Source: Spirochaetaceae bacterium
GTDB lineage: Bacteria > Spirochaetota > Spirochaetia > DSM-2461
Reading direction: 5' to 3'
DNA: 64,000 nucleotides
Assembly: GCA_051531975.1 (NCBI GenBank)
Contig: JAOPTT010000002.1
Coordinates: 1-64,000, forward strand
A model generated the notes under the pieces. The model was not told the origin of the DNA. It was given only the letters and a program-made list of their open reading frames with translations, and did not search any database. Numbering within the stretch: position 1 is the stretch's first letter; every line of letters starts with the position of its first letter. The translations under genes and the position numbers were made by a program. Below, piece after piece: positions 3,674 to 36,932 of the stretch.

Positions 3674-3675
3674 TG

Positions 3676-9686: not shown

Positions 9687-9708
9687 AAGAGCCCTTTATT
9701 GGGCTTTT
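9687..9708. terminator. Bidirectional intrinsic terminator
   Basis: AAGAGCCC-tttatt-GGGCTTTT between convergent genes. Confidence 0.6.
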
Positions 9709-19273: not shown

Positions 19274-20845
19274 ATGAGAAAATACTTTTTATATATACTG
19301 ATTTTGTTTAGGTTAACACTTATACATGCAGATTTTTCTTTTCAATCAATAATAGATGACTACTATAGATTTGAGGAGATTTCAGGACTAAAAGATATAT
19401 CTTCAAAAAACTATAATATTGAAGAGTTAGTTATTCAGGAGTTTAATTATTTAGATCCCTTTTCTTTTAATAAGGAGGTATTTAATACAGATAATATTTC
19501 TATACTATTAACATCACCCCAGGTTTTTATGTCCTATAACTTTTTATCCCCTTTTGGTAATAACGATAGGGTTGCATTTCAGGGAAAGGGGTTTAACTCC
19601 TCTGTGATAACAGGTTTTAAATTTGTATCTGATATTTTTTCTATAAAGTTTAATCCTGAGGTATTTTTTTCTCAGAACCTAGATTATGACATTATTCCTA
19701 CTGAATTTAGTTCAGGTTATGGTGACTACTGGACAATTTTTGATAACCTACAAAGACATGGGGATGACCCATTTTATTATCTATCACTAGGCCAAAGTGC
19801 TCTAAAATTTAACCTTTTTAATACTACTTTAAGTATAGGTACAGAGAATATAGAGACCGCATTTAACCGAAGGAATAGTTTTTTATTAAGTAACCATGCC
19901 GATGGATTTCCACACATAGATTTAGGGACTCAAAACGATGTAAAAATCAAATACTTTGGGGATATAGAAGCAAAAATGATGTGGGGTGTTATTACAGAGT
20001 CAGAATATTTTGATGATGACCCAGATAATGATGATGCTTGGATATCAGGGCTCTTTATGGGTTATACTCCAGCTTTTATGCCAAATCTAAAACTTGGATT
20101 TAATCATTTATATACGACCCCAATGTCTGAATGGGGATCTAATGATTTAATAGCAGGTATTCCTGGTGTGGATTGGGTTAATACACCAGCAGCTGAGGGT
20201 GATAATGATATGATGGTATCCTTAGCATTTAGATGGGTATTTCCAGAATCAGGTTTTGAACTTTATGGAGAGTGGGCTAGAAACGATAATTTTACAAACT
20301 TTAAACAGCTATATAACTTTCCTGAACATACCCAGGCTTATACTGTAGGTTTTAGTAAGATATTAGGACATCCAACAAAAAATAGTTCTCTACAATTTTC
20401 CTCGGAATATAGTGATGCGAGACGACAGAGAACAGTAGTATTAAGTCCAGCAGGGCCCTGGTATAGACATGCCTTTGGAGGCTGGACTCAAGGTTATACA
20501 AATGGAGGACAAATTATTGGTGCATCTATTGGTCCTGGTGGAGAGAATTTATGGCTGGAGATAAAACTAACAACAGAAAAGGCGATATATGCTATTACTG
20601 GAGAAAGATTTGTTTTAGATAAAGATTGGTATTATATGATAAAAGAAAATGGTACTGGTGATTTAACTGGAGAAGAGGTTGGACAATCATCTGAGTTTAA
20701 TTGGGGATTTTCTGCACTACATATATTTGAAGATTTTGCCCTTTATAGTAACTTAACATATAACCTTAATTTTGATGAAAACTTTGTTAATATGGATCAT
20801 GTTAATAACTTTCATTTAGAATTAGGAATTGCTTTAACATTTTAA
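19274..20845 (+). CDS. Capsule assembly Wzi-family outer-membrane protein
   Basis: Signal peptide; LLSNHADGFPH, ELYGEWARND, IGASIGPGG; C-terminal LTF. Confidence 0.7.
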   Translation: MRKYFLYILILFRLTLIHADFSFQSIIDDYYRFEEISGLKDISSKNYNIEELVIQEFNYLDPFSFNKEVFNTDNISILLTSPQVFMSYNFLSPFGNNDRVAFQGKGFNSSVITGFKFVSDIFSIKFNPEVFFSQNLDYDIIPTEFSSGYGDYWTIFDNLQRHGDDPFYYLSLGQSALKFNLFNTTLSIGTENIETAFNRRNSFLLSNHADGFPHIDLGTQNDVKIKYFGDIEAKMMWGVITESEYFDDDPDNDDAWISGLFMGYTPAFMPNLKLGFNHLYTTPMSEWGSNDLIAGIPGVDWVNTPAAEGDNDMMVSLAFRWVFPESGFELYGEWARNDNFTNFKQLYNFPEHTQAYTVGFSKILGHPTKNSSLQFSSEYSDARRQRTVVLSPAGPWYRHAFGGWTQGYTNGGQIIGASIGPGGENLWLEIKLTTEKAIYAITGERFVLDKDWYYMIKENGTGDLTGEEVGQSSEFNWGFSALHIFEDFALYSNLTYNLNFDENFVNMDHVNNFHLELGIALTF

Positions 20846-20861: not shown

Positions 20862-21554
20862 ATGAAGATATCAGATTTAAAAGTTGGTTATACCGATAAA
20901 AAACGAAATAGTGAAAAAATAGATTTATGGTTATATCATTTTGCGAGACCTTTCTCATGGCCATTAACCTGGTTATGCATAACTTTAGGTCTATCTGCAA
21001 GCGCTGTTACCTATATTTCAATAGTTGCTGTAATTGTTGGGGCTATCTGCCTTATTTTAGGAAATTATACTATAACCATAGTTGGGATATTACTTTTTAA
21101 TTTTTGGGTAATATTAGACTGTGTAGATGGAAATATTGCTCGGTATAAAAAAACATTTAGCCAATATGGTGAGTTTATAGATGCTGTTGGTGGTTATTTT
21201 GCTACTACATTTCTATTTTCTAGTTTAGGTTATCTATCCTATAGGCTTTTTGATGATCCTAACTATCTAATATTAGGTTTCTGGGCAACTATAAGTTCAC
21301 TATTTTCTAGACTATTATACCAAAAGTTTAAAAATACTTTTACAGACACAGATACAGTTATCAAACCTAGGGACAATTCAAGTTCCTTTCCTATGATGGT
21401 TGCTCAAAATATAGGGGCAGCTTCTGGTTTAGTTTTACCTATTTCTGTAATAGCAGTTATATTACACAAACCAAACTACATTGTTATTGTTTGGGCTGGT
21501 ATTAATACTCTTATGTTATTTTATACTTTTGTTAAGACATTAAAGGTTAGATAA
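20862..21554 (+). CDS. CDP-alcohol phosphotransferase family membrane protein
   Basis: Signature LDCVDGNIAR...GEFID. Confidence 0.88.
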   Translation: MKISDLKVGYTDKKRNSEKIDLWLYHFARPFSWPLTWLCITLGLSASAVTYISIVAVIVGAICLILGNYTITIVGILLFNFWVILDCVDGNIARYKKTFSQYGEFIDAVGGYFATTFLFSSLGYLSYRLFDDPNYLILGFWATISSLFSRLLYQKFKNTFTDTDTVIKPRDNSSSFPMMVAQNIGAASGLVLPISVIAVILHKPNYIVIVWAGINTLMLFYTFVKTLKVR

Positions 21555-22683: not shown

Positions 22684-23619
22684 CTATTTTCTATCTTTCC
22701 ACTGCCTATACTTAATATCTTCTAAAAGCTTTCTATTAACTGCTAGCAAATCTGCTAAAAATGCCACTAACATCATAGTTGCACCAAATAGTATTAATAT
22801 GGAAGCTAAAATAAGGGACTGTGTATGCCCTCCACCATCTTTGTTAATGATAAAATAGACATATCTAATACCGATGGCAACACCGGCTATAAACGAAACT
22901 AAACCTTTGTTAAAAAAGAATGGGAATGGTTTATATATTATTCTAACCCAGATCATTGTCTTAACAGAACGTCTAATATATGAGCTCATACTTTTAAATA
23001 GTCTAGAAGGTCTTAATTGACCATTTGTTCCTATTGGAACATTAACAATTTTAAGATTTTTAGAACCTGCTTGGATCAGAGTCTCCAATGTATATGTATA
23101 GTTATTATAAACATTTAGCTTCATTGCAGCATCTCTAGAAAATGCTCTAAAACCACTAGGAGCATCTTTTACATCTGTTCCACTAAATATTCTCATTACA
23201 TAACTACCAAGTTTCTGAAGCATCTTTTTAATTAAAGAGAAGTCTTTAATATCTGATATTGGTCTAGTACCTACAACTATATCTGCTCTCTCTTCTAAAA
23301 TTGGAACTACAAGATCTTTTATACATGAAGCTTTATATTGGTTATCCGCATCGGTATTCACAATAATATCTGCACCATTTTCTAAGCAGGCATTTATTCC
23401 TTGTCTAAAACCTTCGGCTAAACCTCTATTTTGTGCAAAACTAACAATATGGTCTACACCATACTCTTTAGCAACCTCTACTGTTTTATCGCTACTACCA
23501 TCGTTTATTATTAACCATTCAACTTTATCAATTCCAGGAATCTCTCTTGGTAACTCTTTAAGAGTAATAGGAAGACTTCCTTCCTCGTTAAAACATGGTA
23601 TCTGTATAATTAGCTTCAT
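22684..23619 (-). CDS. Polyprenol-phosphate glycosyltransferase (GtrB/DPM1-like GT2)
   Basis: MKLIIQIPCFNEE, INDGSSD, NTDADNQY, DAPSGFRA, two C-terminal TM helices; ATG 23619 overlaps the upstream TGA. Confidence 0.88.
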   Translation of the reverse strand: MKLIIQIPCFNEEGSLPITLKELPREIPGIDKVEWLIINDGSSDKTVEVAKEYGVDHIVSFAQNRGLAEGFRQGINACLENGADIIVNTDADNQYKASCIKDLVVPILEERADIVVGTRPISDIKDFSLIKKMLQKLGSYVMRIFSGTDVKDAPSGFRAFSRDAAMKLNVYNNYTYTLETLIQAGSKNLKIVNVPIGTNGQLRPSRLFKSMSSYIRRSVKTMIWVRIIYKPFPFFFNKGLVSFIAGVAIGIRYVYFIINKDGGGHTQSLILASILILFGATMMLVAFLADLLAVNRKLLEDIKYRQWKDRK

Positions 23620-24032
23620 GAATCGCTCCTTAATATTTTTTTGTGAAAAACCCATTTATCAAAAACAAAAAATTTAACTATCATTAAAAACCCTGTAACA
23701 AGAAAAATAGATATTTGTAAATGTATGCTAAGTATAGTACTTAATATTAATACAAAGAAATAGTCTATTAAATTAAATACCAGAACAAAGGATAGATAAC
23801 TTAGAAACCGTCCTTTTAGTCCACCTTTAACTTTAAATGTAACTAAAACGTTATAAAAAAAGTTATAACAAATTACGATAGGTAGAGTTAAACCATATAC
23901 TAATGGAGTTCCAAAGTTTGTAAACTCAGAATACAGGTAGGATATTAGTGCTTTTAAGAAATAACTCACTCCCCCACCTAATATAAAAAACATAAACTTT
24001 TTAGAGAAGTAGTACTTTACCAGTTTTTTCAT
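23616..24032 (-). CDS. GtrA-family lipid-linked sugar flippase
   Basis: 138 aa, four TM helices; FMFFILGG, YNFFYNVLVTF, KFFVFDKWVF. Confidence 0.8.
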   Translation of the reverse strand: MKKLVKYYFSKKFMFFILGGGVSYFLKALISYLYSEFTNFGTPLVYGLTLPIVICYNFFYNVLVTFKVKGGLKGRFLSYLSFVLVFNLIDYFFVLILSTILSIHLQISIFLVTGFLMIVKFFVFDKWVFHKKILRSDS

Positions 24033-25540
24033 TTAACTTCTTCCATTGTTGTCTCTTTAAGCTCAAATGGAAGTCGGTAACTTACTATTATTTGATTAGA
24101 ACTGTTGTTATCTAAAAAAAGAAATTGTCTACCTGATTCTAAAATTTCTTTATGAGTACTATAAGAACCAATACCATTATCTAATTGCAGAAACAGTCTG
24201 TTAACTGTATCTAAACTTTTATGGCTTAATCTTCTGCCTAATGTGAAAACATCATTCTCTAAATATGTTCCAAAAGTTCCACCTAAATCTTTTACTCTAT
24301 TAACCTCTTTCTCAAAATTAATAGTTTTAATAAAGTTGTGTTCAGAGGGTTTCAGAGGATTATTAAGATAGTTACCTGCTGATTTTGGTAAAAATGGTAA
24401 GATTATTGCCATAAAACAGATTAGACATAGAGGTAATACAAATGTAGATAAAACTATTAGTTTATTATCCATAAGCCTGTTTGCAACTGGTACAAAGCTA
24501 AATAGAGTCAAAGATATTAACATTGCAAAAAGTGGTAACAGTGGAGAGAAGTATCTAACAACAAAATCTTCCATTGGAATAAAAGGATTAACACTTTTAA
24601 TTGCAAAAGTAAGTATAAACATAAAAGTTATTATTACAGTTAATAACATTCCTACTTTCTGGGGCTGGATCTTATTCTTTAATAAAATTATTCCAGCCGC
24701 AATACCAGGCCAAGTAATTAAATGCCAGTATATTGGAAAGTTTTTAAAAGAGTAACGTTCAAAAAGACCTAAAAATGTACCATCAAACTGAACACCTTGA
24801 CCTAAAGTCATTGAACCACTACCAAAGTGGGTAGATAAAATTATTTCTAACCTTCCCATAGGGTAACCAGCAAAAACAGCATAACAAAAATGCTCAATTG
24901 AATATAAACCGGCTAAAATCAAGCAATATATAAAAGCAGACTTCAAAGATGATCTTTTAATAAGTAGTATTACCCAAGGAATCAATACATATAAGTTTGT
25001 TATTTTTGTCTCATACGCAATAAATAAAAATGTCACAGACAGGGCAAAATAGAGTTTTGACTTTCTACTACCTTTCTCTAGATCAAAAAATCTAAGTAAA
25101 AAATAGAGACTAATCAATACATAACTTATTGAGAACAGTGCTAAAAACAGTTGGCTTCCAATTCTAATTGTATAGGGGAAAAACTGAAATATAACTATTG
25201 ATAAAAATGCAACTTTTGAGCTAAAAAGGTATTTACCTAATTTGTAAATTACACCGTTTAGAACCAGAGTCATAAAAATAGGAATAAGATAAATAACCCA
25301 GGCTGAAGTTCCAAATATGAGCTGAAATAAGGCTATAGGGAATAAAATTCCCCACCTAATACTTCTATGAAAGAGCTCCCCATATGGGTAGTTATTTAAT
25401 AGAGCCTTACCATAATACCAATAGTCAATATTATCACCACCAGTATTAACTTCCATTAATGTTAGAAGCCTCAGTAAAACTGTTAAAATTGAAAATATTA
25501 TAAAAATCTTTAAATCTGAACTTAGCTTTTTAATTTTCAC
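24029..25540 (-). CDS. GT-C fold membrane glycosyltransferase (ArnT/PMT-like, GtrC equivalent)
   Basis: Many TM helices; Asp after TM1 (GGDNIDYW); IYKLGKYLFS, AYETKIT, VRYFSP; adjacent to GtrA and GtrB. Confidence 0.7.
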   Translation of the reverse strand: MKIKKLSSDLKIFIIFSILTVLLRLLTLMEVNTGGDNIDYWYYGKALLNNYPYGELFHRSIRWGILFPIALFQLIFGTSAWVIYLIPIFMTLVLNGVIYKLGKYLFSSKVAFLSIVIFQFFPYTIRIGSQLFLALFSISYVLISLYFLLRFFDLEKGSRKSKLYFALSVTFLFIAYETKITNLYVLIPWVILLIKRSSLKSAFIYCLILAGLYSIEHFCYAVFAGYPMGRLEIILSTHFGSGSMTLGQGVQFDGTFLGLFERYSFKNFPIYWHLITWPGIAAGIILLKNKIQPQKVGMLLTVIITFMFILTFAIKSVNPFIPMEDFVVRYFSPLLPLFAMLISLTLFSFVPVANRLMDNKLIVLSTFVLPLCLICFMAIILPFLPKSAGNYLNNPLKPSEHNFIKTINFEKEVNRVKDLGGTFGTYLENDVFTLGRRLSHKSLDTVNRLFLQLDNGIGSYSTHKEILESGRQFLFLDNNSSNQIIVSYRLPFELKETTMEEVK

Positions 25541-25543
25541 AAA

Positions 25544-26281
25544 TTATACCTTATAGAACTCTGTACATTCTCTATCTTCTGGGCAATCAACTTCCATCCA
25601 ACCATTATTAATATAAACAGCACTTAATGGAGTTATGTTATCCCCTATTAACTGTAAAAAGGAGGTCATGTACATGTTGTTATAATCTTTACCATCGTAA
25701 ATTTTATCTTTATCTAAACCGTGATAAAAAGTTCTAATCTCTTTCATAGCGTCTTTAGAGAACTTCATCATTCCAATATATTGACCTTGAATTTGATCAT
25801 AGGAAGTAGGTTTTTTACCAAGTTCTTTAATTGTATCGTCTGGGTTTAAGATCATTGTCTCGGCATCATCTAGTGGGTTAGGCATTCTTGCAGCCCAATA
25901 CTCTTTCCAACCCTTATCTACAATTACAGAAACTTTTTTATCTGATTTTATTAGTTTTTCTAGAACTTCATCTTTATAGATAATATCTCCATAAGTAATA
26001 ATTATTTCATCGTCCATTATCTCTTCTGCAGAGAATAGAGATGTTACCATATTTGTTGTTTCAAAATCTTTGCTAAAGTGTTTTGTTGTGCCTGGGAAGT
26101 CTATTACATCTTCTCTATACCCTGTAACAATATGGATATCTGTAATATTCAGACGTTTAAATACATCTAATTGATACTCTATTAGTGGTTTACCCTCTAA
26201 CTCAACCATACATTTTGGTATATTGTCTGTTAATGGTCTTAATCTAGTTCCTTGTCCTGCTGCTAAAATTATTACTTTCAT
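25544..26281 (-). CDS. Cytidylyltransferase, LicC/Cj1416 type (putative CTP:phosphoglutamine cytidylyltransferase)
   Basis: LAAGQGTRLRPLTDNIPKCM, TNMVTSL, YGDIIY, DDAETM, GQYIGM, GWMEVD. Confidence 0.8.
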   Translation of the reverse strand: MKVIILAAGQGTRLRPLTDNIPKCMVELEGKPLIEYQLDVFKRLNITDIHIVTGYREDVIDFPGTTKHFSKDFETTNMVTSLFSAEEIMDDEIIITYGDIIYKDEVLEKLIKSDKKVSVIVDKGWKEYWAARMPNPLDDAETMILNPDDTIKELGKKPTSYDQIQGQYIGMMKFSKDAMKEIRTFYHGLDKDKIYDGKDYNNMYMTSFLQLIGDNITPLSAVYINNGWMEVDCPEDRECTEFYKV

Positions 26282-26922
26282 ATCTGTTTATCCTTTAAAA
26301 AGTTTTTTATTAATATATTATCAAAAGACTCATTTTGTCTTTCTGGGTGCCATTGCACACCTAAAACTGGAAGTGTTTTGTGAATAAAAGCCTCTACAAA
26401 ACCATCTGATGTTGTTGCTATAACATTTAATTCCTTGGAAATATCATCTAATTTAAGTCCCTGGTTATGGAATGTATTTGTAACAACATCGGACAGTACT
26501 TTGTGTTCAGAAATTAACTTGTGTGGCTTTCTTACATGATCTTTAATTCCATGGGTTATTGTTCCACCAAAAGATACATTTATAAAATGAAAACCTCGAC
26601 ATATTCCTAAAAGTGGTATATTCAATCTGTTTGCTTCTCTTAAAAGTAGCTCCTCAGTTTTGTCCCTTTCTGGATATACATCAGAGAGTTTATCTGTTGA
26701 CTTATATAGTGATGGATCTACATTATTACCACCAATTAATACAACACCTTCAATACCTTGTATTTTAAAATAATCTAATACATTAGCTGAGTTATTTGGA
26801 ATTAATATAACCATATAACCTAGCTTTTCAAAAAACTCGATATATTCATAGGCTATTATATTACTAACTTCAATATAGTTAGGATTCTCTACAACCTTTG
26901 TAGAAATTAATAACTTTTTCAA
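26278..26922 (-). CDS. Class I glutamine amidotransferase/peptidase C26 (putative gamma-glutamyl-CDP-amidate hydrolase, Cj1417-like)
   Basis: GGNN, ERDKTE, LGICRG nucleophile elbow, QWHPER; context. Confidence 0.82.
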   Translation of the reverse strand: MKKLLISTKVVENPNYIEVSNIIAYEYIEFFEKLGYMVILIPNNSANVLDYFKIQGIEGVVLIGGNNVDPSLYKSTDKLSDVYPERDKTEELLLREANRLNIPLLGICRGFHFINVSFGGTITHGIKDHVRKPHKLISEHKVLSDVVTNTFHNQGLKLDDISKELNVIATTSDGFVEAFIHKTLPVLGVQWHPERQNESFDNILIKNFLKDKQI

Positions 26923-29900
26923 TGTATCACCTCTATTTTTTTACCTAAACAGTCCAGATAAATAGTGCTGTGTCTGCTAACTTTATCGTAGATACTATCT
27001 CCACAACCGATGGCTGCTGGTAGATCAAACTCTGCACACCGGATTGCCATATGGGAGTTTGTTCCACCATATTTTGTTATTAGACCAGCGATATTATGGC
27101 TAAAAATCCAATCAAAGCCAGGATCGGCATTTTCTATACAGACTATTTTACCCTCTATATCACTTTCACTGCCTTCTAAGACTATAATTTTACCTGTAAT
27201 CTGTTTCTGAGTTACAAAATTTGGTTTAGATTGGGCTAAAAAGAAATAATCTAGATCTTTTTCGCTTAAGATTATTTCTGGTAGTTTAATTGCCGAAGTT
27301 ATTAAGTGTTTTGACTTCCTATACTCTATTTTATCTATCCACTCATTTACTATATTTGAAGATATTGAACCGTATGCTCCAAGCTTTATATCTTCTACCA
27401 TCAGATAGGATGCATCAGAACTAGATATACCAATAGATTCACAATACTCTTTAATATAATCTAGGGCCATGGAGAGGTTTTTACTAAACTCAAATTTTGC
27501 TAACTCCCTACCCTCTGTTGCCTTTCTAATAAAGTTAAAAAGTATTGTAGAGTCAAAAGTAAGACCTTGGTCTGATAGAATATTATCAATTTTGAATAAC
27601 TGATCCGTTGTTAACTCAAAAGTAATATTTTCTTCTTTGGCTGGTTTATTATCTAAGTTAATATAGTGATCAAAATCCTGATGATAAGCTGATGAAGAAA
27701 CTTCGTAGGTACCAGGTCTTAGATGCCCATATTTTTTAATTAGCTGTTTCCGATCTCCACTATGGATATCAGTTACAAACTCTTTTGCAACAGTGTGTAC
27801 CGACTTAAAAAAGGTATCGTAGTCTGAATCTGATATTATTTTTAACTCTCTTAGAGATTTAAGTAGTATTACTCCCATAAAACCAAATCTGGCTAAGTTA
27901 GAAAATGGTAGGGTTCCCTTCTCTTTTGTTGAATCTAATAATATTATAACTTTTGAAAGTAGATCAATATTGGATTTTTTCAGATTCTCTCGAACTTCTT
28001 TTAGTGATCTGGTTTTATCTAACTCTTCATCTATAGATATAGTCTCTTCTAAAATTATAGAGTTGGTTAAACTTAAAAATGCACTGTTAATTTCTAGTAT
28101 TTCATCCCCAGTAAATCCATGTCCTTTTAGTTCTAATAATCTACGTTCAATTGTTAAATCGTAGGCTGTAAAAGCTACTAAAAATTCAACTTTATCGTGG
28201 TATTCAGGGTGTTTATTAAGTTTATCTATGTAGTAGTTAATCAGTTTATGGGCAGTTTTATCACTTAAAGATTTAGGAGTAAAGCTATTAAAGCTCATTC
28301 TAATATCAACATATGGTTTTCCACTAAAAGATAAGATACCCGGGTTATTTAGAGTATCTCTATAACCACAATCAACCCTGCTTATTGGCCATATTCTATC
28401 TGTAATAATCTCTTTATAGAGAGAAAATGCTAAAGGTTTAGGGTTTATACCTATAATCTCTGCTGGGTTCCAATCTGGCATAACTCCATATGCAGTTTTA
28501 TTACCAACTAACTTATGACTTCTGTTTTTATCCTGTTTAATATAGTCCCTAATAGCACTTAACTCGTTAGTTATATCGTTATTAAATACTTTTAAATCAT
28601 CTTTATGGGCTGCAATTGGTCTAACCTGTAAGATATATAACTTTCCGTTTGAAAATGCAAACTCAATATCTAATGAGTTAACTCCAGTAAAAGTCTCTAT
28701 CTCTCGAACAGCTAATATAAGTTCCTGAATATTTTTATCTGCAGGTAGATTGTTACTAAACTTATAAAAGATAAGTGTATGATGTTCACCTTTACTACCG
28801 GCAGTTATACTCTCAGTTGAACCTGATAGATCGTAATTTATGGTGTAATATGGTGCAGATGTTTCTAGATCTTTAGTAAAAAGGACTCCACACATAGTTA
28901 CGTCTTCTAACATCGGTTGTACTAAAATCTGGTTCAGAGGATTTTGTTCCTGATCCCCTTTAAGGTAACTATCTATTACTAATTTAGCACCTCTATGGAT
29001 ATCATTTTTATCATTAATATCAATGTTTAAAATGCTTTCATAATTTCCAGCCATAGAGCTATTTTCAGTATCTTCGTTTAGGGCTGAACTTCTAATAACA
29101 AGTTTATTTGAACTGAATTTTTCCTTTATTTCAGAAATTACACTGTCCTGGTTATTTTCATAATCCTGAACCACAAAACTATATTGTGGTAAAACAGTAG
29201 ATTTTGATAACTTATTTTCTAATGTTCTAAGTGTTTCAGCTTTAGTACCAAACTTGAAACGATATAGATCTTGGGATGAGTCTAATTCAGCCCATCCACC
29301 TTTTATATCTATTATCTCTGTTTTGCATGTTATAGATAACTCACCAATAAAATCTATAACGGATTTAAGGCCTTTATCTAAAGATGACTTTATCACTTCC
29401 GAAAATTTAGAAACTATACTTTTTTTAATAATTATTAGACCGGTAAACTCTCCTAATGCAGAACTAATATCCCCAACTTTAGAAACCTTATAACCAGATC
29501 CAGAACTGTATAATTTCTCAGCTTCAACCAAGAATTCATCAGTTCGACCTTCGTATCTTTTAGACCATAAACTATCGTAGGATATAACAAACTCAGCACT
29601 AGAAGAGAGTAGAGACTCTATTACTGCAGGTGAATAAACAATATCTGAATAGGATATAATAATATCGTCATTAAATAGGCTTATAGCTTTATATAGAGAG
29701 TATAAAGATTGGGTTTTACTCCATTTCTCATTGTAAAAGTACTTTAAACTTGGATAGTTTGACATTATTTTCTCTATCTCAAAACCACCAACTATATTTA
29801 TATCTTCTATACCATTTTTATTAAAAGCCTCTAAAGCCTTATCTAAAATTGTAGAATTTTTATCAAAATCTTCTAGACATTTTGGAATAGATTTATCACT

Positions 29901-29948
29901 ACTTAAGTGGATATTTCCTTTCCCTGCTGCTAAAATTATACCTTTCAT
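26919..29948 (-). CDS. Fusion of an N-terminal nucleotidyltransferase domain and a Cj1418-like L-glutamine kinase
   Basis: aa 1-~232 NTase (ILAAGKG, YSDIVY, GWAELD); then FGTKAETL, IRSSALNED..SMAG, GVLFT, DIEFA, ILQVRPI, MPDWNPAEIIG, YGHLRPGTY; C-terminal phospho-His domain ADPGFDWIF...GGTNSHMAIR; no PEP-binding barrel. Confidence 0.82.
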   Translation of the reverse strand: MKGIILAAGKGNIHLSSDKSIPKCLEDFDKNSTILDKALEAFNKNGIEDINIVGGFEIEKIMSNYPSLKYFYNEKWSKTQSLYSLYKAISLFNDDIIISYSDIVYSPAVIESLLSSSAEFVISYDSLWSKRYEGRTDEFLVEAEKLYSSGSGYKVSKVGDISSALGEFTGLIIIKKSIVSKFSEVIKSSLDKGLKSVIDFIGELSITCKTEIIDIKGGWAELDSSQDLYRFKFGTKAETLRTLENKLSKSTVLPQYSFVVQDYENNQDSVISEIKEKFSSNKLVIRSSALNEDTENSSMAGNYESILNIDINDKNDIHRGAKLVIDSYLKGDQEQNPLNQILVQPMLEDVTMCGVLFTKDLETSAPYYTINYDLSGSTESITAGSKGEHHTLIFYKFSNNLPADKNIQELILAVREIETFTGVNSLDIEFAFSNGKLYILQVRPIAAHKDDLKVFNNDITNELSAIRDYIKQDKNRSHKLVGNKTAYGVMPDWNPAEIIGINPKPLAFSLYKEIITDRIWPISRVDCGYRDTLNNPGILSFSGKPYVDIRMSFNSFTPKSLSDKTAHKLINYYIDKLNKHPEYHDKVEFLVAFTAYDLTIERRLLELKGHGFTGDEILEINSAFLSLTNSIILEETISIDEELDKTRSLKEVRENLKKSNIDLLSKVIILLDSTKEKGTLPFSNLARFGFMGVILLKSLRELKIISDSDYDTFFKSVHTVAKEFVTDIHSGDRKQLIKKYGHLRPGTYEVSSSAYHQDFDHYINLDNKPAKEENITFELTTDQLFKIDNILSDQGLTFDSTILFNFIRKATEGRELAKFEFSKNLSMALDYIKEYCESIGISSSDASYLMVEDIKLGAYGSISSNIVNEWIDKIEYRKSKHLITSAIKLPEIILSEKDLDYFFLAQSKPNFVTQKQITGKIIVLEGSESDIEGKIVCIENADPGFDWIFSHNIAGLITKYGGTNSHMAIRCAEFDLPAAIGCGDSIYDKVSRHSTIYLDCLGKKIEVIH

Positions 29949-30604
29949 GATCCCTTCTTATGTAGAATTAACATCTTTATTAACGAATATATATTATTAA
30001 ATGTCCAATATAATAACAGTCCAGCCGGGGATTTATATAGTAAAACTAAAAACAGTAGTGCTATTCCTACTAATTTAATTTTTTCACTTTTAATAAAACC
30101 TTTACTGTAAAAAAATGATGAAAAAAGATTAAAAAATGTCATGATAAATGGCATAACGTTTATAAAACCTAATATACCATCCTGGGTACCAAGGTTATTT
30201 AAAAACAGAAAACTTTGTCCCTGTAGTACCTCTAGGTTTGATAAAAATGTATAAGCTGCAATGAAAAATGGAACTTGTATAAAAAAGCCTAAAGTAGAAC
30301 GCAGACTATAAATAGGATGATAGGAGTATTTTTTATATAACTCTGTTGTTTTTATATACTTCTCTTCACCTTTAAAACTACTATTTATATCTTTAAGTTC
30401 TGGTCTCATGGAACTTTGAATATCTCGTTCTCTTTTTTGTAATTTCTCTGCATAGTTATATATAGGTATTAACAGAGTATTTACAAAGATACTTAACAAA
30501 ATTATAGATATACCATAACTACTAGTAAAATCAACCATGAAGCCTAAAAATAGATCCATTATAAATACTAAGGGTCTAATAAAAATCAGTTCAAAAATGT
30601 TCAT
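29945..30604 (-). CDS. Minimal YidC/Oxa1-family membrane protein
   Basis: SYGISIILLSIFVN, coiled-coil ...MRPELKDI, IQVPFFIA, FLFLNNL, PAGLLLYWTFNN. Confidence 0.8.
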   Translation of the reverse strand: MNIFELIFIRPLVFIMDLFLGFMVDFTSSYGISIILLSIFVNTLLIPIYNYAEKLQKRERDIQSSMRPELKDINSSFKGEEKYIKTTELYKKYSYHPIYSLRSTLGFFIQVPFFIAAYTFLSNLEVLQGQSFLFLNNLGTQDGILGFINVMPFIMTFFNLFSSFFYSKGFIKSEKIKLVGIALLFLVLLYKSPAGLLLYWTFNNIYSLIKMLILHKKGS

Positions 30605-31716
30605 AATGTTCCTCTAATATCTAATAGTTGTTTTACGGCAATCTTTCCAACATTACCAAAATTAAAAAGAGATTTTTCTCTTAATTTAGTAATGTCTTCT
30701 TTAAAATTATTGTCATTTAACTGTCTGTTTATAACTTCAATTATATTCGATATTTTATCTTGAGCTACTACAGTTCCTAAACTCTTTCGAACATCAAGTT
30801 CCCAAATAGTCTTAGAAGTCAGATCTTCGAACTCCATACCTTTTGGCTCGATATCGTAGGATAGTGATATAACAGGTTTTTGATATATAAATCCAAAATC
30901 AAATATTACACCAGAAAGATCCGAGATCATTATATCTGCACTGTTTAAACTGTCATGACCACTAGGGCTATAATCCCATCTGATATTTGAATATTTTTTA
31001 GTTTTATTTAAAATATCTTTTAGAAGCTTCTTTTCTGAAACTAACATCTGGGGATGAGGCCTAACTATAACATCAAAACCATTCTCTAATATATCAATTA
31101 AAAAGTTAGTACCATATTTTGAGAAGGCACCATTAACACCCCATGTAGGAGCAATTAATACACACTTAGGACCATCTTTTTCAATTACTTTAGATTCATT
31201 TTCTAAGTTAGAAGCTAATACATCCATATAAGGACATCCAGTTTTTAATAAAACCTTCTCTTTTGAACCTCTAATTTTTTCTAATATTCGAATTGACTCT
31301 ATCTGGTGGTTTCCAGAACACATTATATAATCAAAATGATCAAATGAATATTTTCTATATTTACCAAAATCTATTGGTGAATGAACAATATGTATATATT
31401 TTTTTACCCCTGGAGACCTTTTAATAGTTAAAGTTTGTAAACCAGGTGTTGTCATAAGTACTGTTCCAGCTTCTAACATGTTCATAAATAGAAGAGAAGC
31501 AAATCCAGAACCTATATAATAAGGTTTCAAATATTCTGAGGCTATTATTATCCCAGGATCATTTATATCCATGGAGATGTAGGAGAACTTAATTTCTTGT
31601 TTTATTAATTCTTGGATTATAGGTTTAAAAGTAGTAAAATAATTATCATTTTCAGAAAACAGTACAATTTCACTATACTCCTTAGAAAAATCTTTTAATT
31701 TACTCTTTTTTATCAT
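30601..31716 (-). CDS. CDP-glycerol glycerophosphotransferase (TagB/TagF) family protein
   Basis: MTTPGL, HIVHS, GCPYMD, VLIAPTWG, VRPHPQ, ADIMISDLSGVIFDF. Confidence 0.82.
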   Translation of the reverse strand: MIKKSKLKDFSKEYSEIVLFSENDNYFTTFKPIIQELIKQEIKFSYISMDINDPGIIIASEYLKPYYIGSGFASLLFMNMLEAGTVLMTTPGLQTLTIKRSPGVKKYIHIVHSPIDFGKYRKYSFDHFDYIMCSGNHQIESIRILEKIRGSKEKVLLKTGCPYMDVLASNLENESKVIEKDGPKCVLIAPTWGVNGAFSKYGTNFLIDILENGFDVIVRPHPQMLVSEKKLLKDILNKTKKYSNIRWDYSPSGHDSLNSADIMISDLSGVIFDFGFIYQKPVISLSYDIEPKGMEFEDLTSKTIWELDVRKSLGTVVAQDKISNIIEVINRQLNDNNFKEDITKLREKSLFNFGNVGKIAVKQLLDIRGTL

Positions 31717-31906
31717 CGTCCTGGCTCTCTACACTTTTTTTAGATTTGAATATTTTATAAAAGAAACCTTTAAAAACATACGCCAAAGTTGCGAAAACAC
31801 CAATTATTCCGGAAACAATCATGCTTCCAGTTCCTGGGTCTAAATAAGCACTTGCCTGTATTAAAATTAACATTAAAAACATTACACTAAAAAATATCTT
31901 TTTCAT
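31700..31906 (-). CDS. Small membrane protein (signal peptide, YLDPGTGS motif, TM helix)
   Basis: 68 aa; starts 3 nt after the upstream stop and overlaps the downstream gene; ASA|YLDPGTGSM. Confidence 0.8.
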   Translation of the reverse strand: MKKIFFSVMFLMLILIQASAYLDPGTGSMIVSGIIGVFATLAYVFKGFFYKIFKSKKSVESQDDDKKE

Positions 31907-31909
31907 CTA

Positions 31910-34123
31910 TTATTCTCCATTAACTGTTTCATTTACCCAGTTATTTTTATCAAATACACTACCTGAAACACTAAATTCACTTATAAAGTTATATTTATTA
32001 TACTCATTTCCTGTTAACTTCCAAGGAGTAATAAAGACTTTTAGACTTCTATTTAAATCGGGGTAGTTAATAGGGTCATTTTTCCCTAAAACAGAGCTCG
32101 CAATGTCGTAGGTATCGGCATTAGAAAGTAGCAGATCTGATACTTTTAAATCCCCACCGGAGTCTATTTCTTTTACCATCATTATTGGATGAACTCGACC
32201 AGTAGGAACTAGAACTTCCCCAGAATCGTTAAGTAATTCAGTAAAGTCAAAAAACATATCGCTTGTTCCAGAAACACCATGATCTGAGACAATTATTATT
32301 TTACTATTATTATATACATTGTTCTCTTTCATCCAATTAAACCAGTCTACAAGTAGGTTAAAAGAGGTCCTATATGTATCTAATACAACTTTAGGATTTA
32401 TATAGTTTGTATTATTATCTCTATTTAATATCTGCTGTGGATTAGAACTCATATATGTTTTTGTAACTTTACCATCTTCATCTAATCCAAAAGGCATATG
32501 TGTTAAGTTATTTGCAAAAAACTTAACTGTTTTAGTTTTTGAATCTGTAGTGGATAATTCAGGTAACATTTTTAGTACAGAAAAATTTTCTAATATATGA
32601 GTAATAGTACTGCCACCATTATTTGTTTTTAGCCACTTACCCTTAGAGTATATTCTTGATTTAAAAATATGAGGAGATGATTTAAATAGACCAATAGCCA
32701 TAAATAGACCTCTATAATCAATTGATTCTGTTAATTTATTAACTTCATTAACGTTTTTACCGAGAGACTTCCATTTTGAAAATATATCCTTGTTGGTATA
32801 ATAATTTATATCATTGTCTTCAAAAACTGATTTATCCCAAATATAGTAGAGTCCACCAAATGAGATATCATATCCTTTTTTACCAAAGTCCTTAGAATAT
32901 TGAGTATAAGCTAAGTTATATTGTTCTTTTATATCGATACCCTTTTTATTTATACTGTCCGGTGTAAAATCTCTACCACCTATAAGACTAGGCATGGATG
33001 TATATGTATTATTGGATATTGATATTGTATTAGGGTACCAGGTAAAACCTTTTAACTCACTTTCTAATTCAGGATTATCTAATAGCAGTTCTGGAATATA
33101 ACCTGCACAAAACATATCTAACATTATAATTATTACATTTTCTTCTTTAGAGAATTTAAATGCACTTAAATCTGAACTTTGGGTATTAGAGAAGTTTTGT
33201 TTAGTAGATTTTTGTTTAAATGTAACTATATTTCCAACTGTTTGTCCAAAACTCATTAGGTTAAGAATAACTAATATTGGTAATACTATTTTTGTTTTGT
33301 ATATAAACAGTAAAATAAAAGCCACAAATGATATAAAAATTAAAAACAACTCCAATAATTGTCGAACTTTTCCAAGTTTTAAGTTTTCTGCTTTAGTTAA
33401 TATTACACCATCTAAATTTCCAAAATCACCTGGTAGTAGATAGGAATAAACCCATGTCATTAGGGCTAAAAAAGTTATAAGCAGTAATAATAGGACCTTT
33501 CGGTTAAAACTAAATATTTTAACTATCCAATATAAGGCAGTAATAACTATAGCTGAAAATAGAATTAATGATATTACTATTTTTAAGCTCTCATCATATG
33601 TTTTTGCAGATGAAAAAAGTACATTAAGTGGTGAATATAAAAATGTATTGGCAATTAAAAGAATCAGGGATAAAACTGCAATTTTGTTAAAATTATCAGA
33701 AACATTTTTAGTTAAACTTTTTATCTTATTAACATAGTTATCAGAAAAACAGTAGAACAAGGATATAACCATTGAGATAAATGCTTTCAATGAACCAGAC
33801 TTGATAAAACCAAGGACATAAGAGTTAGAAGTTTCTGACTTCATATCAAATGTAAATGTAACAAATAACATCTTAAAAATTAAATATCCAGACAAAATAA
33901 GGGTTAATATTGAAAGTGATAAAAATATAAAGTATTCGATATTTTTTTCCATAAGTTTAAGTAGCTTAATTAAAAATAGGGCAGCAACTATAAATAGAAT
34001 TAAAAACAGACCTTCTCTTACTAATAAGATATCCCTGTGAATAAAAGAAGCATTCGCCCCTAAAAAGCAGAAGAGACCTAATATAAACTGTATTAGATCT
34101 CTATTTTTTGATATTTTAAACAT
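31910..34123 (-). CDS. Multi-TM protein with an extracytoplasmic alkaline-phosphatase-superfamily (LtaS/sulfatase-like) domain
   Basis: About nine TM helices, then IIIMLD, NNTYTSMPS (Thr nucleophile position), THMP, VSDHG, LSNAD. Confidence 0.78.
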   Translation of the reverse strand: MFKISKNRDLIQFILGLFCFLGANASFIHRDILLVREGLFLILFIVAALFLIKLLKLMEKNIEYFIFLSLSILTLILSGYLIFKMLFVTFTFDMKSETSNSYVLGFIKSGSLKAFISMVISLFYCFSDNYVNKIKSLTKNVSDNFNKIAVLSLILLIANTFLYSPLNVLFSSAKTYDESLKIVISLILFSAIVITALYWIVKIFSFNRKVLLLLLITFLALMTWVYSYLLPGDFGNLDGVILTKAENLKLGKVRQLLELFLIFISFVAFILLFIYKTKIVLPILVILNLMSFGQTVGNIVTFKQKSTKQNFSNTQSSDLSAFKFSKEENVIIIMLDMFCAGYIPELLLDNPELESELKGFTWYPNTISISNNTYTSMPSLIGGRDFTPDSINKKGIDIKEQYNLAYTQYSKDFGKKGYDISFGGLYYIWDKSVFEDNDINYYTNKDIFSKWKSLGKNVNEVNKLTESIDYRGLFMAIGLFKSSPHIFKSRIYSKGKWLKTNNGGSTITHILENFSVLKMLPELSTTDSKTKTVKFFANNLTHMPFGLDEDGKVTKTYMSSNPQQILNRDNNTNYINPKVVLDTYRTSFNLLVDWFNWMKENNVYNNSKIIIVSDHGVSGTSDMFFDFTELLNDSGEVLVPTGRVHPIMMVKEIDSGGDLKVSDLLLSNADTYDIASSVLGKNDPINYPDLNRSLKVFITPWKLTGNEYNKYNFISEFSVSGSVFDKNNWVNETVNGE

Positions 34124-34125
34124 AT

Positions 34126-35193
34126 TTAACCTACTATCTCTTTGATTATTCCATTAAATCGATCTTCTAAACCATCTAATTCATTTTTATAAATGTTAAA
34201 AGCGTTGTCTATAATATTTTCTCTTTCTGTTTCATTTTCTAGATAATAACTACCTTTAGAAACCATATCAGAGAGATCCCATTTAAAGGGAACGTAGGTC
34301 TCTCCTGGAATAAATATATCAGGCCATGTTTCTAAGTGGGACATATCAGGTTTAAGCAGTAGAGATCTATTATATACAGCTTCAAAATCTCTTTTACAAA
34401 GTTCTCCCCAGCCAAATGGGCTAAGAATTATTTTAGACTCTTTAATCTCTCTATTAAACTGTTTCTGGTCTACCCTACCATTTAGAAAATCTGGGTTATC
34501 TTTAATAATTTCAACAATTAATTTTCTTTGATGATGTATACTTTTTTTTGCTGGGAAACCAAGTCGACCATGTATTTTATATTTTTTTACAGAACCAACA
34601 ATACCTGCTCCATCCCAGAAGTTTCTATGATATAAAAACTTAACAAATATAGGCCCAAAAGCTCTAGCAATAACAACTCCAATTCGCTGTCTTAATTTAG
34701 TATTAGGGAAATCTGTTACACCAATATTCCAGGATAGTCTTAATTTATCTAATAAAGATTCATCGGTTAGAACTTCTCGAATTATAGGTTCTGGATCAGT
34801 AACTCCATGCTTTTCATGATGATATTCAGAGAACATCTCATCTCCATAAAAAGTTTTTTTATACAAAGAACGGTCTTTAAAAAGTGCTTTATTATAAAAT
34901 AGATCTACATAGGGTAAAACTTCAGGTCTATGAATAGCTCCACCTGCATTTCCATTAAAGAAAGCAATTCTTTTATACTTTGAACGAAGCTTTTTCATAA
35001 ATTCTAAATCGACAACATCAGGTTTCAAAAACCACCGAACCATAATAAGTATACTATTTTTATCTTTATTCAAAACATATTCACTACTATTAGTAAACTT
35101 AAATCTTTTACACTGCTTCGAAAAAAGAAATGGCTTTAAACTGTGAAAAAGAGACAATCTATCATAAAATGCTAAAACTGTTATATCTTTCAT
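34126..35193 (-). CDS. GT-B fold glycosyltransferase
   Basis: SKIILSPFGWGELCKRDFEA, LLLKPDMSHLETWPD, GETYVP. Confidence 0.7.
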   Translation of the reverse strand: MKDITVLAFYDRLSLFHSLKPFLFSKQCKRFKFTNSSEYVLNKDKNSILIMVRWFLKPDVVDLEFMKKLRSKYKRIAFFNGNAGGAIHRPEVLPYVDLFYNKALFKDRSLYKKTFYGDEMFSEYHHEKHGVTDPEPIIREVLTDESLLDKLRLSWNIGVTDFPNTKLRQRIGVVIARAFGPIFVKFLYHRNFWDGAGIVGSVKKYKIHGRLGFPAKKSIHHQRKLIVEIIKDNPDFLNGRVDQKQFNREIKESKIILSPFGWGELCKRDFEAVYNRSLLLKPDMSHLETWPDIFIPGETYVPFKWDLSDMVSKGSYYLENETERENIIDNAFNIYKNELDGLEDRFNGIIKEIVG

Positions 35194-35349: not shown

Positions 35350-35643
35350 TTAAACACTAAGTTCTATATGATTTTTCTTAATATTATCCTGAAACTCTTT
35401 TGGTAAATCAGCCCAGATAAATAGATCCACTCTAAATGTTATATCACTCTCTTGTAAAGATTCACGAAGATTAAAAACATTATCATTATTATTAGTAAAA
35501 ACAACCATATCTAGATCAGAGTAGTTACTATACTGTTCTGTTATCCGAGAACCATAAACCCACACGACCACATTAGGAATATTATCTTTAATAAGTAATT
35601 TTAATATATTTTGATCTTTTGTAGAGATACCTAATTTATTCAT
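35350..35643 (-). CDS. Minimal nucleotidyltransferase (MNT) antitoxin, pair 1
   Basis: VYGSR...SDLDM, RVDL; start placed at ATG 35643, overlapping the HEPN stop. Confidence 0.85.
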   Translation of the reverse strand: MNKLGISTKDQNILKLLIKDNIPNVVVWVYGSRITEQYSNYSDLDMVVFTNNNDNVFNLRESLQESDITFRVDLFIWADLPKEFQDNIKKNHIELSV

Positions 35644-36049
35644 GATACTCAATAATCTTAGAATATAATAATTTAGCATTTTTTATAAAGTCTTCCATTA
35701 AACCGATAGATTCCAGGGCCTTTTCTCCATTATAGTCGTGGGATGTACTTATTCTGGCACTTGCATAACTAAACCACTGTTCAAGGGAACTGTCTAAAAG
35801 AGAGTTTTCAGCTGCAATTCTAAGTATAGGTTTAGGACTATTTGGAACATCAGGTATACCAAGTTCATGTATAAGATATTTTTTTAACAGCTTCCATAGT
35901 GTATCCCAACATGTCTCAAAACGCTGTATAACAGACTCTTGTACAGCCTCTTGAATCAATATATCCAAAGAGGGGTTAAGTGTTCTATAGTTATTATACT
36001 GTAATTCTAAGTTATTTAATGACTTAATAAACTTACTATAATCAATCAT
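35636..36049 (-). CDS. HEPN protein (nucleotidyltransferase substrate-binding, HI0074 type), pair 1
   Basis: IQRFETCWDTLWKLLK, SPKPILR, RISTSHDY (RX4H). Confidence 0.85.
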   Translation of the reverse strand: MIDYSKFIKSLNNLELQYNNYRTLNPSLDILIQEAVQESVIQRFETCWDTLWKLLKKYLIHELGIPDVPNSPKPILRIAAENSLLDSSLEQWFSYASARISTSHDYNGEKALESIGLMEDFIKNAKLLYSKIIEYHE

Positions 36050-36117
36050 AGTTAATGTTACTATCTATTAGAGCTATCGTCTAGAGAAGTTTAAAGCTTC
36101 TTTTTTAAGGGTTATAT

Positions 36118-36414
36118 TTATAACTTAAGAAGCACAGAGCTATTTTCAACTTCTGTGGATAACAGTGAGTCTGAAGAGTGATACTGAACAAAATCAACTT
36201 TTAAATCAAAATCTCTTATTGCTAAATAAGTAATAACTTCTATCCTCTTCTTTTTAAACTCTGCAGAGCTAATGTTTGTATCAATCGCAATATCAATATC
36301 TCCGCCTCTTTTACTATCGTCTACTCGACTACCAAATAGATATATATTGACATCATCAAAATAGGTATTTATAGCATTGACTAGAGTTTTAATAATACGT
36401 TTTGATACTCTCAT
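36118..36414 (-). CDS. MNT antitoxin, pair 2
   Basis: YLFGSRVDDSKRGGDIDI, KVDFV. Confidence 0.88.
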   Translation of the reverse strand: MRVSKRIIKTLVNAINTYFDDVNIYLFGSRVDDSKRGGDIDIAIDTNISSAEFKKKRIEVITYLAIRDFDLKVDFVQYHSSDSLLSTEVENSSVLLKL

Positions 36415-36887: not shown

Positions 36888-36932
36888 AATTAAAATACAC
36901 CCCAATACCATATTTACAACACATCTATAGGA

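Follow-up and report, generated by a model that had tools for sequence, protein, structure and literature searches.

The first 64,000 nucleotides of contig JAOPTT010000002.1 from a Spirochaetaceae bacterium (GenBank assembly GCA_051531975.1), hereafter the window, carry on their minus strand a seven-gene cassette of 8,580 bases (25544-34123), in which relatives of three Campylobacter jejuni enzymes of O-methyl phosphoramidate (MeOPN) synthesis stand next to a TagF-like phosphotransferase and three membrane proteins. From the sequence evidence set out below we propose, with moderate confidence, that the cassette makes cytidine diphosphoramidate from glutamine, ATP and cytidine triphosphate (CTP), and that its own TagF-like enzyme transfers the phosphoramidate directly from this cytidine diphosphate (CDP) donor. 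In the proposed series of steps, the kinase would N-phosphorylate glutamine, the free cytidylyltransferase would convert the product to CDP-glutamine, and the hydrolase would free the CDP-amidate, kinase, cytidylyltransferase and hydrolase all being soluble. On the TagF-like enzyme, an acceptor hydroxyl would then attack the beta-phosphorus with release of cytidine monophosphate (CMP), and a small peptide, a YidC-like protein and a protein of the alkaline phosphatase (AP) superfamily would together, as a membrane module, deliver the small head group to an acceptor in the envelope, beyond the cytoplasmic membrane. Since the TagF-like enzyme would draw directly on the CDP-amidate, 3'-phosphorylation of the donor would not be needed. 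Like the initial annotation of the window, we infer CDP-NH2 as the product of the donor-forming enzymes and an unmethylated phosphoramidate as the group displayed.

Predicted donor-forming enzymes of the cassette

As C. jejuni references we used the open reading frames (ORFs) of a locus of this species, L037, which encode proteins of the Cj1415 to Cj1420 types and the last 410 amino acids of a MeOPN transferase, and whose identities are given by matches to the NCBIfam models NF004508 (1173 bits, the Cj1418-type protein), NF045546 (gamma-glutamyl-CDP-amidate hydrolase, 330.7 bits), NF004041 (adenylyl-sulfate-kinase subfamily, 290.6 bits) and, for the transferase fragment, NF058596 ('O-methyl phosphoramidate transferase', 407 bits). 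In the genome to which the window belongs (5.46 Mb, 98.5% complete), the best and essentially sole matches to the Cj1418-, Cj1417- and Cj1416-type proteins are the products of three consecutive minus-strand ORFs, neighbours overlapping by 4 bases each. They occupy exactly the interval 25544-29948, over which the initial annotation had described three consecutive genes, and their family matches far exceed what chance would give.

The first of them (26919-29948) encodes a protein of 1009 amino acids, the larger part of which is a Cj1418-type kinase domain composed of an ATP-grasp and a phospho-histidine swivel unit (26919-29264). It matches the Pfam families PPDK_N (PF01326, 56.2 bits) and PEP-utilizers (PF00391, 47 bits) and, over model positions 4-788 of 789, the same NF004508 (PRK05849) model as the C. 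jejuni protein (918.9 bits, E = 2e-276, cut-off 501), to which it is 39% identical over 786 amino acids (E = 8e-174, tblastn over the whole genome). The motifs MPDWNPAEIIG, GHLRPGTY and GGTNSHMAIR, from which an ATP-grasp plus phospho-histidine enzyme had initially been recognised, are all present in the translation, in agreement with the two Pfam matches, and the last of them aligns with GGANSHMAIR of C. jejuni. Its histidine, H966, which we take to be the phospho-carrier of the GG(A/T)NSHMAIR motif, is invariant in 24 sequences. We predict this protein to be an L-glutamine kinase; annotations by the Joint Genome Institute (JGI) already call relatives of it 'glutamine kinase'.

In its architecture the protein is unlike the stand-alone Cj1418 of about 780 amino acids, as it carries an additional, N-terminal domain of 228 residues (29265-29948) that resembles nucleotidyltransferases (NTases), matches PF12804 and shares 28.7% identity with the Cj1416-type protein (E = 8e-19, tblastn). 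In a motif census over dereplicated sequences from loci with unfused and fused kinases (51 and 36 free NTases, respectively, and 56 fused domains), G11, R13 and K23 are kept in all free NTases of both kinds (51/51 and 36/36), in which the G-x-G-x-R plus P-K signature is universal; among the 56 fused domains, the second glycine (G11) is kept in 6 and K23 in 11, and 49 show a two-residue loop deletion. Nine further core positions are retained in 44 to 56 of the fused domains, and seven of the nine (Y97, D99, W125, E141, G170, W228 and D236), among them acidic residues that likely bind metal, in 55-56 of the domains. The fused domain of the window reads LAAGKGNIH at this site, with GxG and PK present and the arginine missing. 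Because the degenerate signature is the one described as building the pyrophosphate pocket, with a lysine that stabilises the transition state, in the part of the Treponema cytidylyltransferase study that deals with it (PMC6697681), the fused domain is probably a non-catalytic paralogue of the Cj1416-type enzyme.

The second ORF (26278-26922) encodes a 214-residue hydrolase of the Peptidase_C26, or class-I amidotransferase, type, which matches PF07722 with 132.5 bits as well as a GATase family, lacks a predicted transmembrane segment and has NF045546 as its best NCBIfam model (104.9 bits). Its identity to the Cj1417-type protein is 30% (E = 2e-14, tblastn over the whole genome). The residues C108, H192 and E194 are invariant in a seven-sequence alignment that includes the C. 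jejuni protein, which, together with the C26 match, bears out the Cys-His-Glu amidohydrolase of the initial annotation. We predict the protein to be a gamma-glutamyl-CDP-amidate hydrolase; the conservation of a gamma-glutamyl-type hydrolase beside the kinase fits a gamma-glutamyl intermediate.

The third ORF (25544-26281), which forms the downstream end of the cassette, encodes a free NTase of 245 amino acids that is 40.6% identical to the Cj1416-type protein over 249 positions (E = 9e-59), the only other match of the latter in the genome being the fused domain described above. The NTase carries the canonical signature (GxG(T/S)R...PK) as LAAGQGTRLRP...PKCM, and among solved structures it matches the phosphocholine cytidylyltransferase LicC best (1jyk, E = 7.8e-17), so that its earlier assignment as a LicC-type cytidylyltransferase stands. 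The Cj1416-type protein of C. jejuni itself falls below every NCBIfam cut-off and no curated model is applicable; by homology, the window enzyme is predicted to be a CTP:phosphoglutamine cytidylyltransferase.

The MeOPN kinase, methyltransferases and transferases, of which the initial annotation had seen no homologues in the window, are missing genome-wide, both by tblastn and by profiles. The Cj1415-type, Cj1419-type and MeOPN-transferase proteins have no tblastn match in the whole genome, and the Cj1420-type protein has only a generic one, of 28% identity over 102 amino acids, on contig C10; the NF058596 profile (DUF2972 / MeOPN transferase) finds nothing in the genome, and the profiles NF004041 and PF01583, which stand for the 3'-kinase type, find only P-loop fragments of 18-22 bits within large ORFs. 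As positive controls, NF058596 was found in the C. jejuni genome and NF004041 scored 291 bits there. The description of the locus as Campylobacter-type phosphorus-nitrogen (P-N) bond biosynthesis minus the late genes is upheld by the homology of the donor enzymes, but not in its plain form, as the kinase is fused and belongs to a separate clade.

Two locus classes and the TagF-linked membrane module

While a single-sequence search of genome contigs found no relative, an alignment-based scan did. Seeded with an alignment, the scan of species genomes gave 80 loci, L037 among them; 80 metagenome loci were added using an alignment of the fused domain, and the ORFs of these 160 loci and of the window were clustered. 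They comprise 71 loci with an unfused kinase, 74 with a fused one (the window included) and 16 that are too short to class. In a FastTree phylogeny of 108 kinase domains, a split with a support of 1.0 separates 57 unfused sequences from a group made up of 46 fused sequences and 5 unfused ones from archaea, and the window kinase lies within a small fused clade of 10. The kinase is found in none of 40 relatives (3 of the same genus, 21 of the same family and 16 of the same class), and a search of 400 further genomes from the phylum found it in only 2, unfused and 38-39% identical in either case.

The two classes keep different company. Counted over dereplicated loci flanked on each side by 3 kb or more (48 unfused, 21 fused), and with partners at a distance of up to 5 kb, the Cj1415/methyltransferase cluster occurs in 42 of the unfused loci but only 1 of the fused ones, whereas a TagF-like gene is found in 7 and 14, respectively, and homologues of the YidC-like and of the AP-superfamily protein of the cassette (hereafter AP737) are each found in 0 and 5. 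Sulfotransferase-like or DUF2972 proteins are present in 35 of all 71 unfused versus 2 of all 74 fused loci. This distribution fits a logic for the unfused class like that of 3'-phosphoadenosine 5'-phosphosulfate (PAPS), with a 3'-kinase followed by a sulfotransferase-like transferase, and for the fused class a direct use of the donor as in CDP-glycerol chemistry.

Two further observations concern these loci. A family of 290-570 amino acids ('c3'), with a weakly formyltransferase-like N-terminal part and in some members a part resembling S-adenosylmethionine-dependent methyltransferases, occurs in 11 of the 21 fused loci (L026, L059, L063, L179 and others) and may modify the head group in its lineages; no homologue was found in the window genome, where only Fmt/PurN-like proteins and generic methyltransferases matched. 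A Helicobacteraceae metagenome-assembled genome (G441), which contributes a fused, TagF-linked locus (L008), encodes on another contig an NF004041-type kinase above cut-off (207 bits) and may carry both pathway types.

The TagF-like gene of the cassette (30601-31716) encodes a soluble protein of 371 amino acids that matches Glyphos_transf (PF04464) with 60.8 bits against a cut-off of 22.1. Single-sequence searches of the PDB found nothing for this protein or for AP737, but family profiles gave matches, that of the TagF-like family to Cps3D (E = 4.6e-6), TagF (E = 2.4e-4) and TarL (E = 5.1e-4). The invariant R219 and H221 (R-x-H) align with the 'RMH' of TagF, and with an AlphaFold model of good quality (mean predicted local distance difference test, pLDDT, 85.7) the top Foldseek matches are TagF chains, 3l7i being the best (E = 2.6e-12). 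The homologue in a fused locus of Pseudomonas brenneri (L026) is 30% identical over 365 amino acids (E = 5.7e-57), and when 401 Pseudomonadota genomes (P. brenneri and 400 others) were searched with the TagF-like profile alone, it was found in two, in both of them in a locus with a fused kinase. About 4 of the 74 fused loci have a match to TagD-type cytidylyltransferases, so that a local supply of CDP-glycerol is unusual, and the locus context argues for a CDP donor other than CDP-glycerol or CDP-ribitol. As an experimental precedent, a TagF-like enzyme of Clostridioides difficile, FtaD (CDP-N-methylthreonine:GlcNAc phosphotransferase), is described in the preprint text available as moving a substituted phosphate from a CDP-amino-acid donor to N-acetylglucosamine (bioRxiv 10.64898/2026.02.12.704994). 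We consider the TagF-like enzyme of the cassette the likely phosphoramidate transferase.

Immediately upstream lies an unannotated ORF for a peptide of 68 amino acids (31700-31906), whose end overlaps the beginning of the TagF-like gene. A hydrophobic, signal-like N-terminus up to A-x-A is followed in the peptide by an invariant Y-[LI]-D-P-G-[ST]-G-S motif, a single transmembrane helix and a tail of basic character; in an alignment of 20 sequences, Y21, D23, P24, G25 and G27 are invariant, and no Pfam or NCBIfam family was matched. Being below the usual gene-calling length, its ORF occupies the sole apparent 'gap' of the operon. In short ORFs, the motif is found in 0 of 71 unfused (1.34 Mb) and 25 of 73 fused loci; the window genome has it a single time. 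Among the 21 well-flanked, dereplicated fused loci it occurs in 8, all of which have a TagF-like gene, and in none of the 7 that lack one.

Searched as a degenerate DNA pattern, the motif is also present in 13 of 400 other spirochaete genomes (0 for the reversed pattern as a control), none of which is among the two kinase-bearing genomes of the phylum. Twelve of these loci were fetched: the kinase and the hydrolase were found in none of them, and a TagF-like gene adjoins the peptide in 8. In two (L199 and L200), the YidC-like, peptide/TagF-like and sulfatase-like genes adjoin genes for a phosphoenolpyruvate (PEP) mutase, a thiamine pyrophosphate (TPP)-dependent decarboxylase and an NTase-aminotransferase fusion, and two others (L201 and L202) show the same pattern, as judged from the ORF layout. 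The NTase-aminotransferase fusion is the PntC-AEPT architecture of Treponema, which according to the sections available of its description makes CMP-2-aminoethylphosphonate (Rice et al. 2019, PMC6697681); the position of the module next to phosphonate genes in L199 and L200 thus couples it to another cytidine-activated small phosphorus head group. In two further spirochaete loci, L192 and L193 (genomes G205 and G294), a unit of peptide, TagF-like protein and YidC-like/AP-superfamily fusion is repeated two or three times in tandem, and neither the kinase nor phosphonate genes are present in the fetched stretch. In L195-L198 (G147, G414, G406 and G090) the motif lies at the start of, or just before, an ORF of 462-485 amino acids with no Pfam family (one of the four has a weak methyltransferase match) and no detected TagF-like similarity, followed in L196 and L198 by a sulfatase-like protein.

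The YidC/Oxa1-like protein (29945-30604, 219 amino acids) matches 60KD_IMP (PF02096) with 87.1 bits against a cut-off of 35 and is a second copy, the housekeeping YidC of 591 amino acids being encoded on contig C13; homologues of it are also found in the fused-kinase loci L026 and L059. The loss of a basic residue in the first core helix was considered as a mark of the whole cassette YidC-like family and rejected, as the asparagine at this position occurs in the window copy only. AP737 (31910-34123), at the upstream end of the cassette, consists of about eight transmembrane helices predicted from hydropathy and a soluble domain that is putatively of the AP superfamily (sulfatase/LtaS-like), with a weak signal. 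Its homologue in L026 (23% identity over 409 amino acids, E = 5.6e-9) matches Sulfatase (PF00884) with 29.8 bits against a cut-off of 25, and the profile of the family, in which D614-H615-G616 is invariant, matches sulfatases (E = 3e-4) and LtaS (E = 1e-2); the AlphaFold model of AP737 is poor (pLDDT 45). In one of the spirochaete motif loci, PF02096 and PF00884 are found in a single protein of 907 amino acids (L194:4184-6907), and tblastn finds the same fusion in L192, which argues that the YidC-like and sulfatase-like parts act together.

Taken with the phosphonate loci, the membrane module appears to be an interchangeable device that handles small phosphorus head groups activated with cytidine, paired in the window with the glutamine-kinase trio. 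The initial annotation had foreseen a different transfer route; candidate genes for it are indeed present at 29945-34123 (TagF-like, YidC-like, peptide and AP-superfamily), though they had not been recognised as such. More tentatively, and with rather less confidence than we have in the reading of the cassette itself, we suggest that there is a second, kinase-independent route to envelope phosphoramidate in bacteria and some archaea, with a dedicated TagF-like phosphoramidyl transferase, and that the four-part module (YLDPGSGS peptide, TagF-like, private YidC-like and LtaS-like proteins) may be general and swappable, serving phosphoramidate here and aminoethylphosphonate in other spirochaetes.

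Genomic setting and competing readings

A strong FlaA family match, with none in 14 control genomes, marks the window genome as that of a spirochaete. The limits of the cassette were set by comparison with a genome of the same genus (G002, 81% complete), which was identified in a DNA search of family genomes. On its upstream side, the cassette is flanked by a gene for a Glyco_trans_1_2-like glycosyltransferase of 355 amino acids (34126-35193, minus strand), which matches PF13524 weakly and whose neighbours in a protein atlas (score 0.98) carry this family. On its downstream side, also on the minus strand and by Pfam assignment, are genes for a PMT_2 glycosyltransferase of the GT-C type (24029-25540), a GtrA-like protein (23616-24032) and a family 2 (GT2) polyprenyl-phosphate sugar synthase-like glycosyltransferase (22684-23655). 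In G002 (locus L176) the homologue of the 355-residue protein (74% amino acid identity) directly precedes those of PMT_2 (51%), GtrA (56%) and GT2 (80%), and the cassette is not between them. As the flanking genes adjoin there, 25544-34123 is, by this comparison of gene order, a seven-gene insertion into a surface-glycan operon, and its genes form one unit; the 355-residue protein, considered as a further member, was rejected for its presence in a same-genus genome that lacks the cassette. All seven ORFs are intact and tightly coupled. GC content (0.297 in cassette and left flank alike) gives no sign of insertion, and a scan for promoters and terminators, with 73 promoter-like sites versus 83 expected, was uninformative. 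Among sequencing runs, the sequence was traced to no RNA run and to a single DNA run, labelled marine metagenome, which may be its source.

The surrounding 64 kb form a glycan region with rml, UDP-glucose dehydrogenase, GDP-mannose and many glycosyltransferase genes. It also encodes two weakly Wzi-like proteins and two DUF6675 paralogues (9707-11374, minus; 19274-20845, plus; 46354-47136, minus; 48339-49133, minus), as well as a protein of the CDP-alcohol phosphatidyltransferase family (20862-21554, plus) and a TagD-like cytidylyltransferase fusion (51986-53140, minus), which suggest a separate CDP-alcohol chemistry of the glycerol- or inositol-phosphate type in the polysaccharide locus. Just upstream of the cassette-bearing operon are NTase/HEPN-type toxin-antitoxin-like pairs (35350-36911 and 39563-40358, minus), namely Polbeta with NTase_sub_bind, a second Polbeta with an unassigned neighbour of 166 amino acids, and HepT with Polbeta. 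Between them lies a gene of the Rpn family of PD-(D/E)XK proteins ('recombination-promoting nuclease/putative transposase', TIGR01784, 192 bits; 36995-37843, minus), which has a 76%-identical DNA copy at C2:86440-87195 and more copies in same-genus genomes; a HigB/helix-turn-helix pair is found at 3248-3981.

Four other readings of the cassette were weighed. It is unlikely, in our view, that the donor of the TagF-like enzyme is CDP-L-glutamine itself and that the acceptor receives N-phosphoglutamine, with the C26 hydrolase trimming later or acting elsewhere, so that the group displayed could be phosphoglutamine. The order of hydrolysis and transfer is not fixed by sequence, and FtaD, which alone among characterised TagF-like enzymes has an amino-acid donor, moves the phospho-amino acid as a whole in the account available (bioRxiv 10.64898/2026.02.12.704994). 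Yet the hydrolase is soluble, with neither a transmembrane nor a signal segment, its Campylobacter relative acts on the free nucleotide, and its gene is conserved next to that of the kinase in 51 of the 74 fused loci, a set with many truncated members, even though it would be dispensable if CDP-glutamine were the final donor.

Less probable again is a reading in which the fused kinase clade phosphorylates an amide or amine other than glutamine, which would lead to a different cytidine-activated phosphorus compound. It draws on the separation of this clade from that of Campylobacter with a support of 1.0 and at 39% identity, on the scores of the fused-locus hydrolases, which all stay below the NF045546 cut-off (105-141 bits versus 250), and on the extra domain, which points to an altered handling of the substrate. 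Against this, the full-length match of the kinase exceeds the curated cut-off of NF004508, the set of three enzymes persists in an unchanged gene order, and the hydrolase belongs to the gamma-glutamyl-specific C26 family with NF045546 as its best match.

We regard it as improbable, and place it below both of these, that the TagF-like enzyme has nothing to do with the P-N enzymes and transfers glycerol or ribitol phosphate as usual in its family, and that the CDP-amidate is used by AP737, by the 20862-21554 protein or by a protein encoded elsewhere, or is a soluble metabolite. With a TagD-like cytidylyltransferase and a CDP-alcohol phosphatidyltransferase, the window may well host CDP-glycerol chemistry, and TagF-like genes are not foreign to unfused loci (7/48); but the gene is itself part of the 8.6-kb insertion, which the same-genus genome lacks, it accompanies the fused kinase across distant phyla, TagD-type genes match in few fused loci (about 4/74), and the 20862-21554 protein has homologues in just 2-3 of 80 loci. 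It is very improbable, finally, that the cassette is what remains, inactive, of a MeOPN-type pathway after the loss of the late genes (which are indeed not found in the genome), given seven intact and tightly coupled ORFs, catalytic motifs that are kept and an architecture without late genes that recurs in many lineages.

Our preferred reading, the direct transfer of phosphoramidate from CDP-amidate by the TagF-like enzyme, has points to contend with as well. The kinase forms a clade apart from that of Campylobacter at 39% identity, and its substrate could differ; the hydrolase, at 104.9 bits, is well short of the curated equivalog cut-off of 250 for NF045546, as are those of three other fused loci (122-141 bits), while the C. 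jejuni protein exceeds it. The link to the TagF-like gene is not absolute, this gene being missing in 7 of the 21 fused and present in 7 of the 48 unfused loci. The comparison of the two classes also joins different sampling frames, since the unfused loci come from species genomes and most fused ones were retrieved from metagenomes with the fused domain as seed, and relatives among the loci are not independent; the sulfotransferase labels derive from weak Pfam matches of cluster representatives (23-40 bits) and our own iterated profile hidden Markov models. In the membrane module, the YidC-like protein of the window has an asparagine in its first core helix, where 12 of 12 homologues and the housekeeping copy have arginine or lysine, AP737 reaches 21.8 bits with Phosphodiest (PF01663), below the cut-off of 23, and the roles suggested for the peptide, the YidC-like protein and AP737 derive from co-occurrence and one domain fusion.

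Comparison with known systems

The enzymes of the MeOPN pathway of C. jejuni were reportedly described by Taylor and Raushel in 2017-2018. The pathway is laid out as Cj1415-Cj1422 in the text available of PMC6429109, and a 2022 review, in the passage concerned, calls glutamine kinase 'C. jejuni-specific' (PMC9561416). In a preprint on Borgs (bioRxiv), Cj1416-1418-like genes are annotated in archaeal elements, as far as its accessible text goes; together with the JGI names, this makes the spread of the family already visible in databases. No description of the fused or TagF-linked variant was found in the literature searched, preprint supplements being outside its scope. We conclude that the donor enzymes would represent a known pathway, and that their fused, 3'-kinase-free, TagF-linked form with a membrane module is undescribed in the literature found.

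So far, glycan phosphoramidate is documented for Campylobacter capsules. If the proposed reading is true, P-N chemistry would be present on many environmental cell surfaces and would have two solutions for transfer, one with a PAPS-like 3'-phospho donor and sulfotransferase-like enzymes and the other with TagF-like enzymes that draw on the CDP donor directly, and an undescribed membrane module equipped with a private YidC-like protein and a small peptide would handle small phosphorus head groups, phosphonates included. The question of phosphoramidate transfer becomes testable in culturable carriers, such as the Pseudomonas brenneri strain of L026.

Among membrane enzymes of the AP superfamily, LtaS and EptA (phosphoethanolamine) transferases are the closest in design to AP737, which likewise has a polytopic N-terminal part and a soluble, putatively AP-superfamily domain with an S-D-H-G metal-site motif, although the matches of the family profile are weak (E = 3e-4 to 1e-2) and the window protein itself is below the Pfam cut-off. 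With the Pnt clusters, which comprise PEP mutase, phosphonopyruvate decarboxylase and PntC-AEPT (PMC6697681; PDB 6pd1), the cassette shares the activation of a small phosphorus head group by a LicC-type cytidylyltransferase; unlike in these, no PEP mutase genes adjoin the module in the window, and the donor genes are those of the glutamine-kinase trio. The neighbours named for the Pnt clusters are LicD-like transferases and glycosyltransferases, and 'TagF' does not appear in the main text, as far as this is available (PMC6697681).

To TagF, TarL, Cps3D and FtaD the TagF-like protein is related by the GT-B TagF-like fold, PF04464 and the conserved His and D-x-S motifs, and, as we propose for the window protein, by the logic of a reaction in which a CDP donor gives up a substituted phosphate and CMP is set free. 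It differs in being a single-domain protein of 371 amino acids that is 15-19% identical to the solved enzymes, in the absence of a glycerol-phosphate supply gene from the cassette, and in its proposed donor, CDP-amidate, which is not known to serve the TagF family.

The MeOPN system of C. jejuni, finally, has in common with the cassette a kinase of family NF004508, a C26-type hydrolase and a LicC-type NTase (39%, 30% and 41% identity, respectively), their gene order and a location in a surface-polysaccharide region. It differs in its late steps, as the window genome is without a Cj1415-type 3'-kinase, a Cj1419/20-type methyltransferase and a DUF2972/NF058596 transferase, and in its kinase, which in the window bears an extra, degenerate NTase-like domain, belongs to another clade and is accompanied by a hydrolase below the curated cut-off. 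In the place of the late Campylobacter enzymes, the partners of the donor-forming trio in the window are a TagF-like protein, a YidC-like protein, a small peptide and a membrane protein of the AP superfamily.

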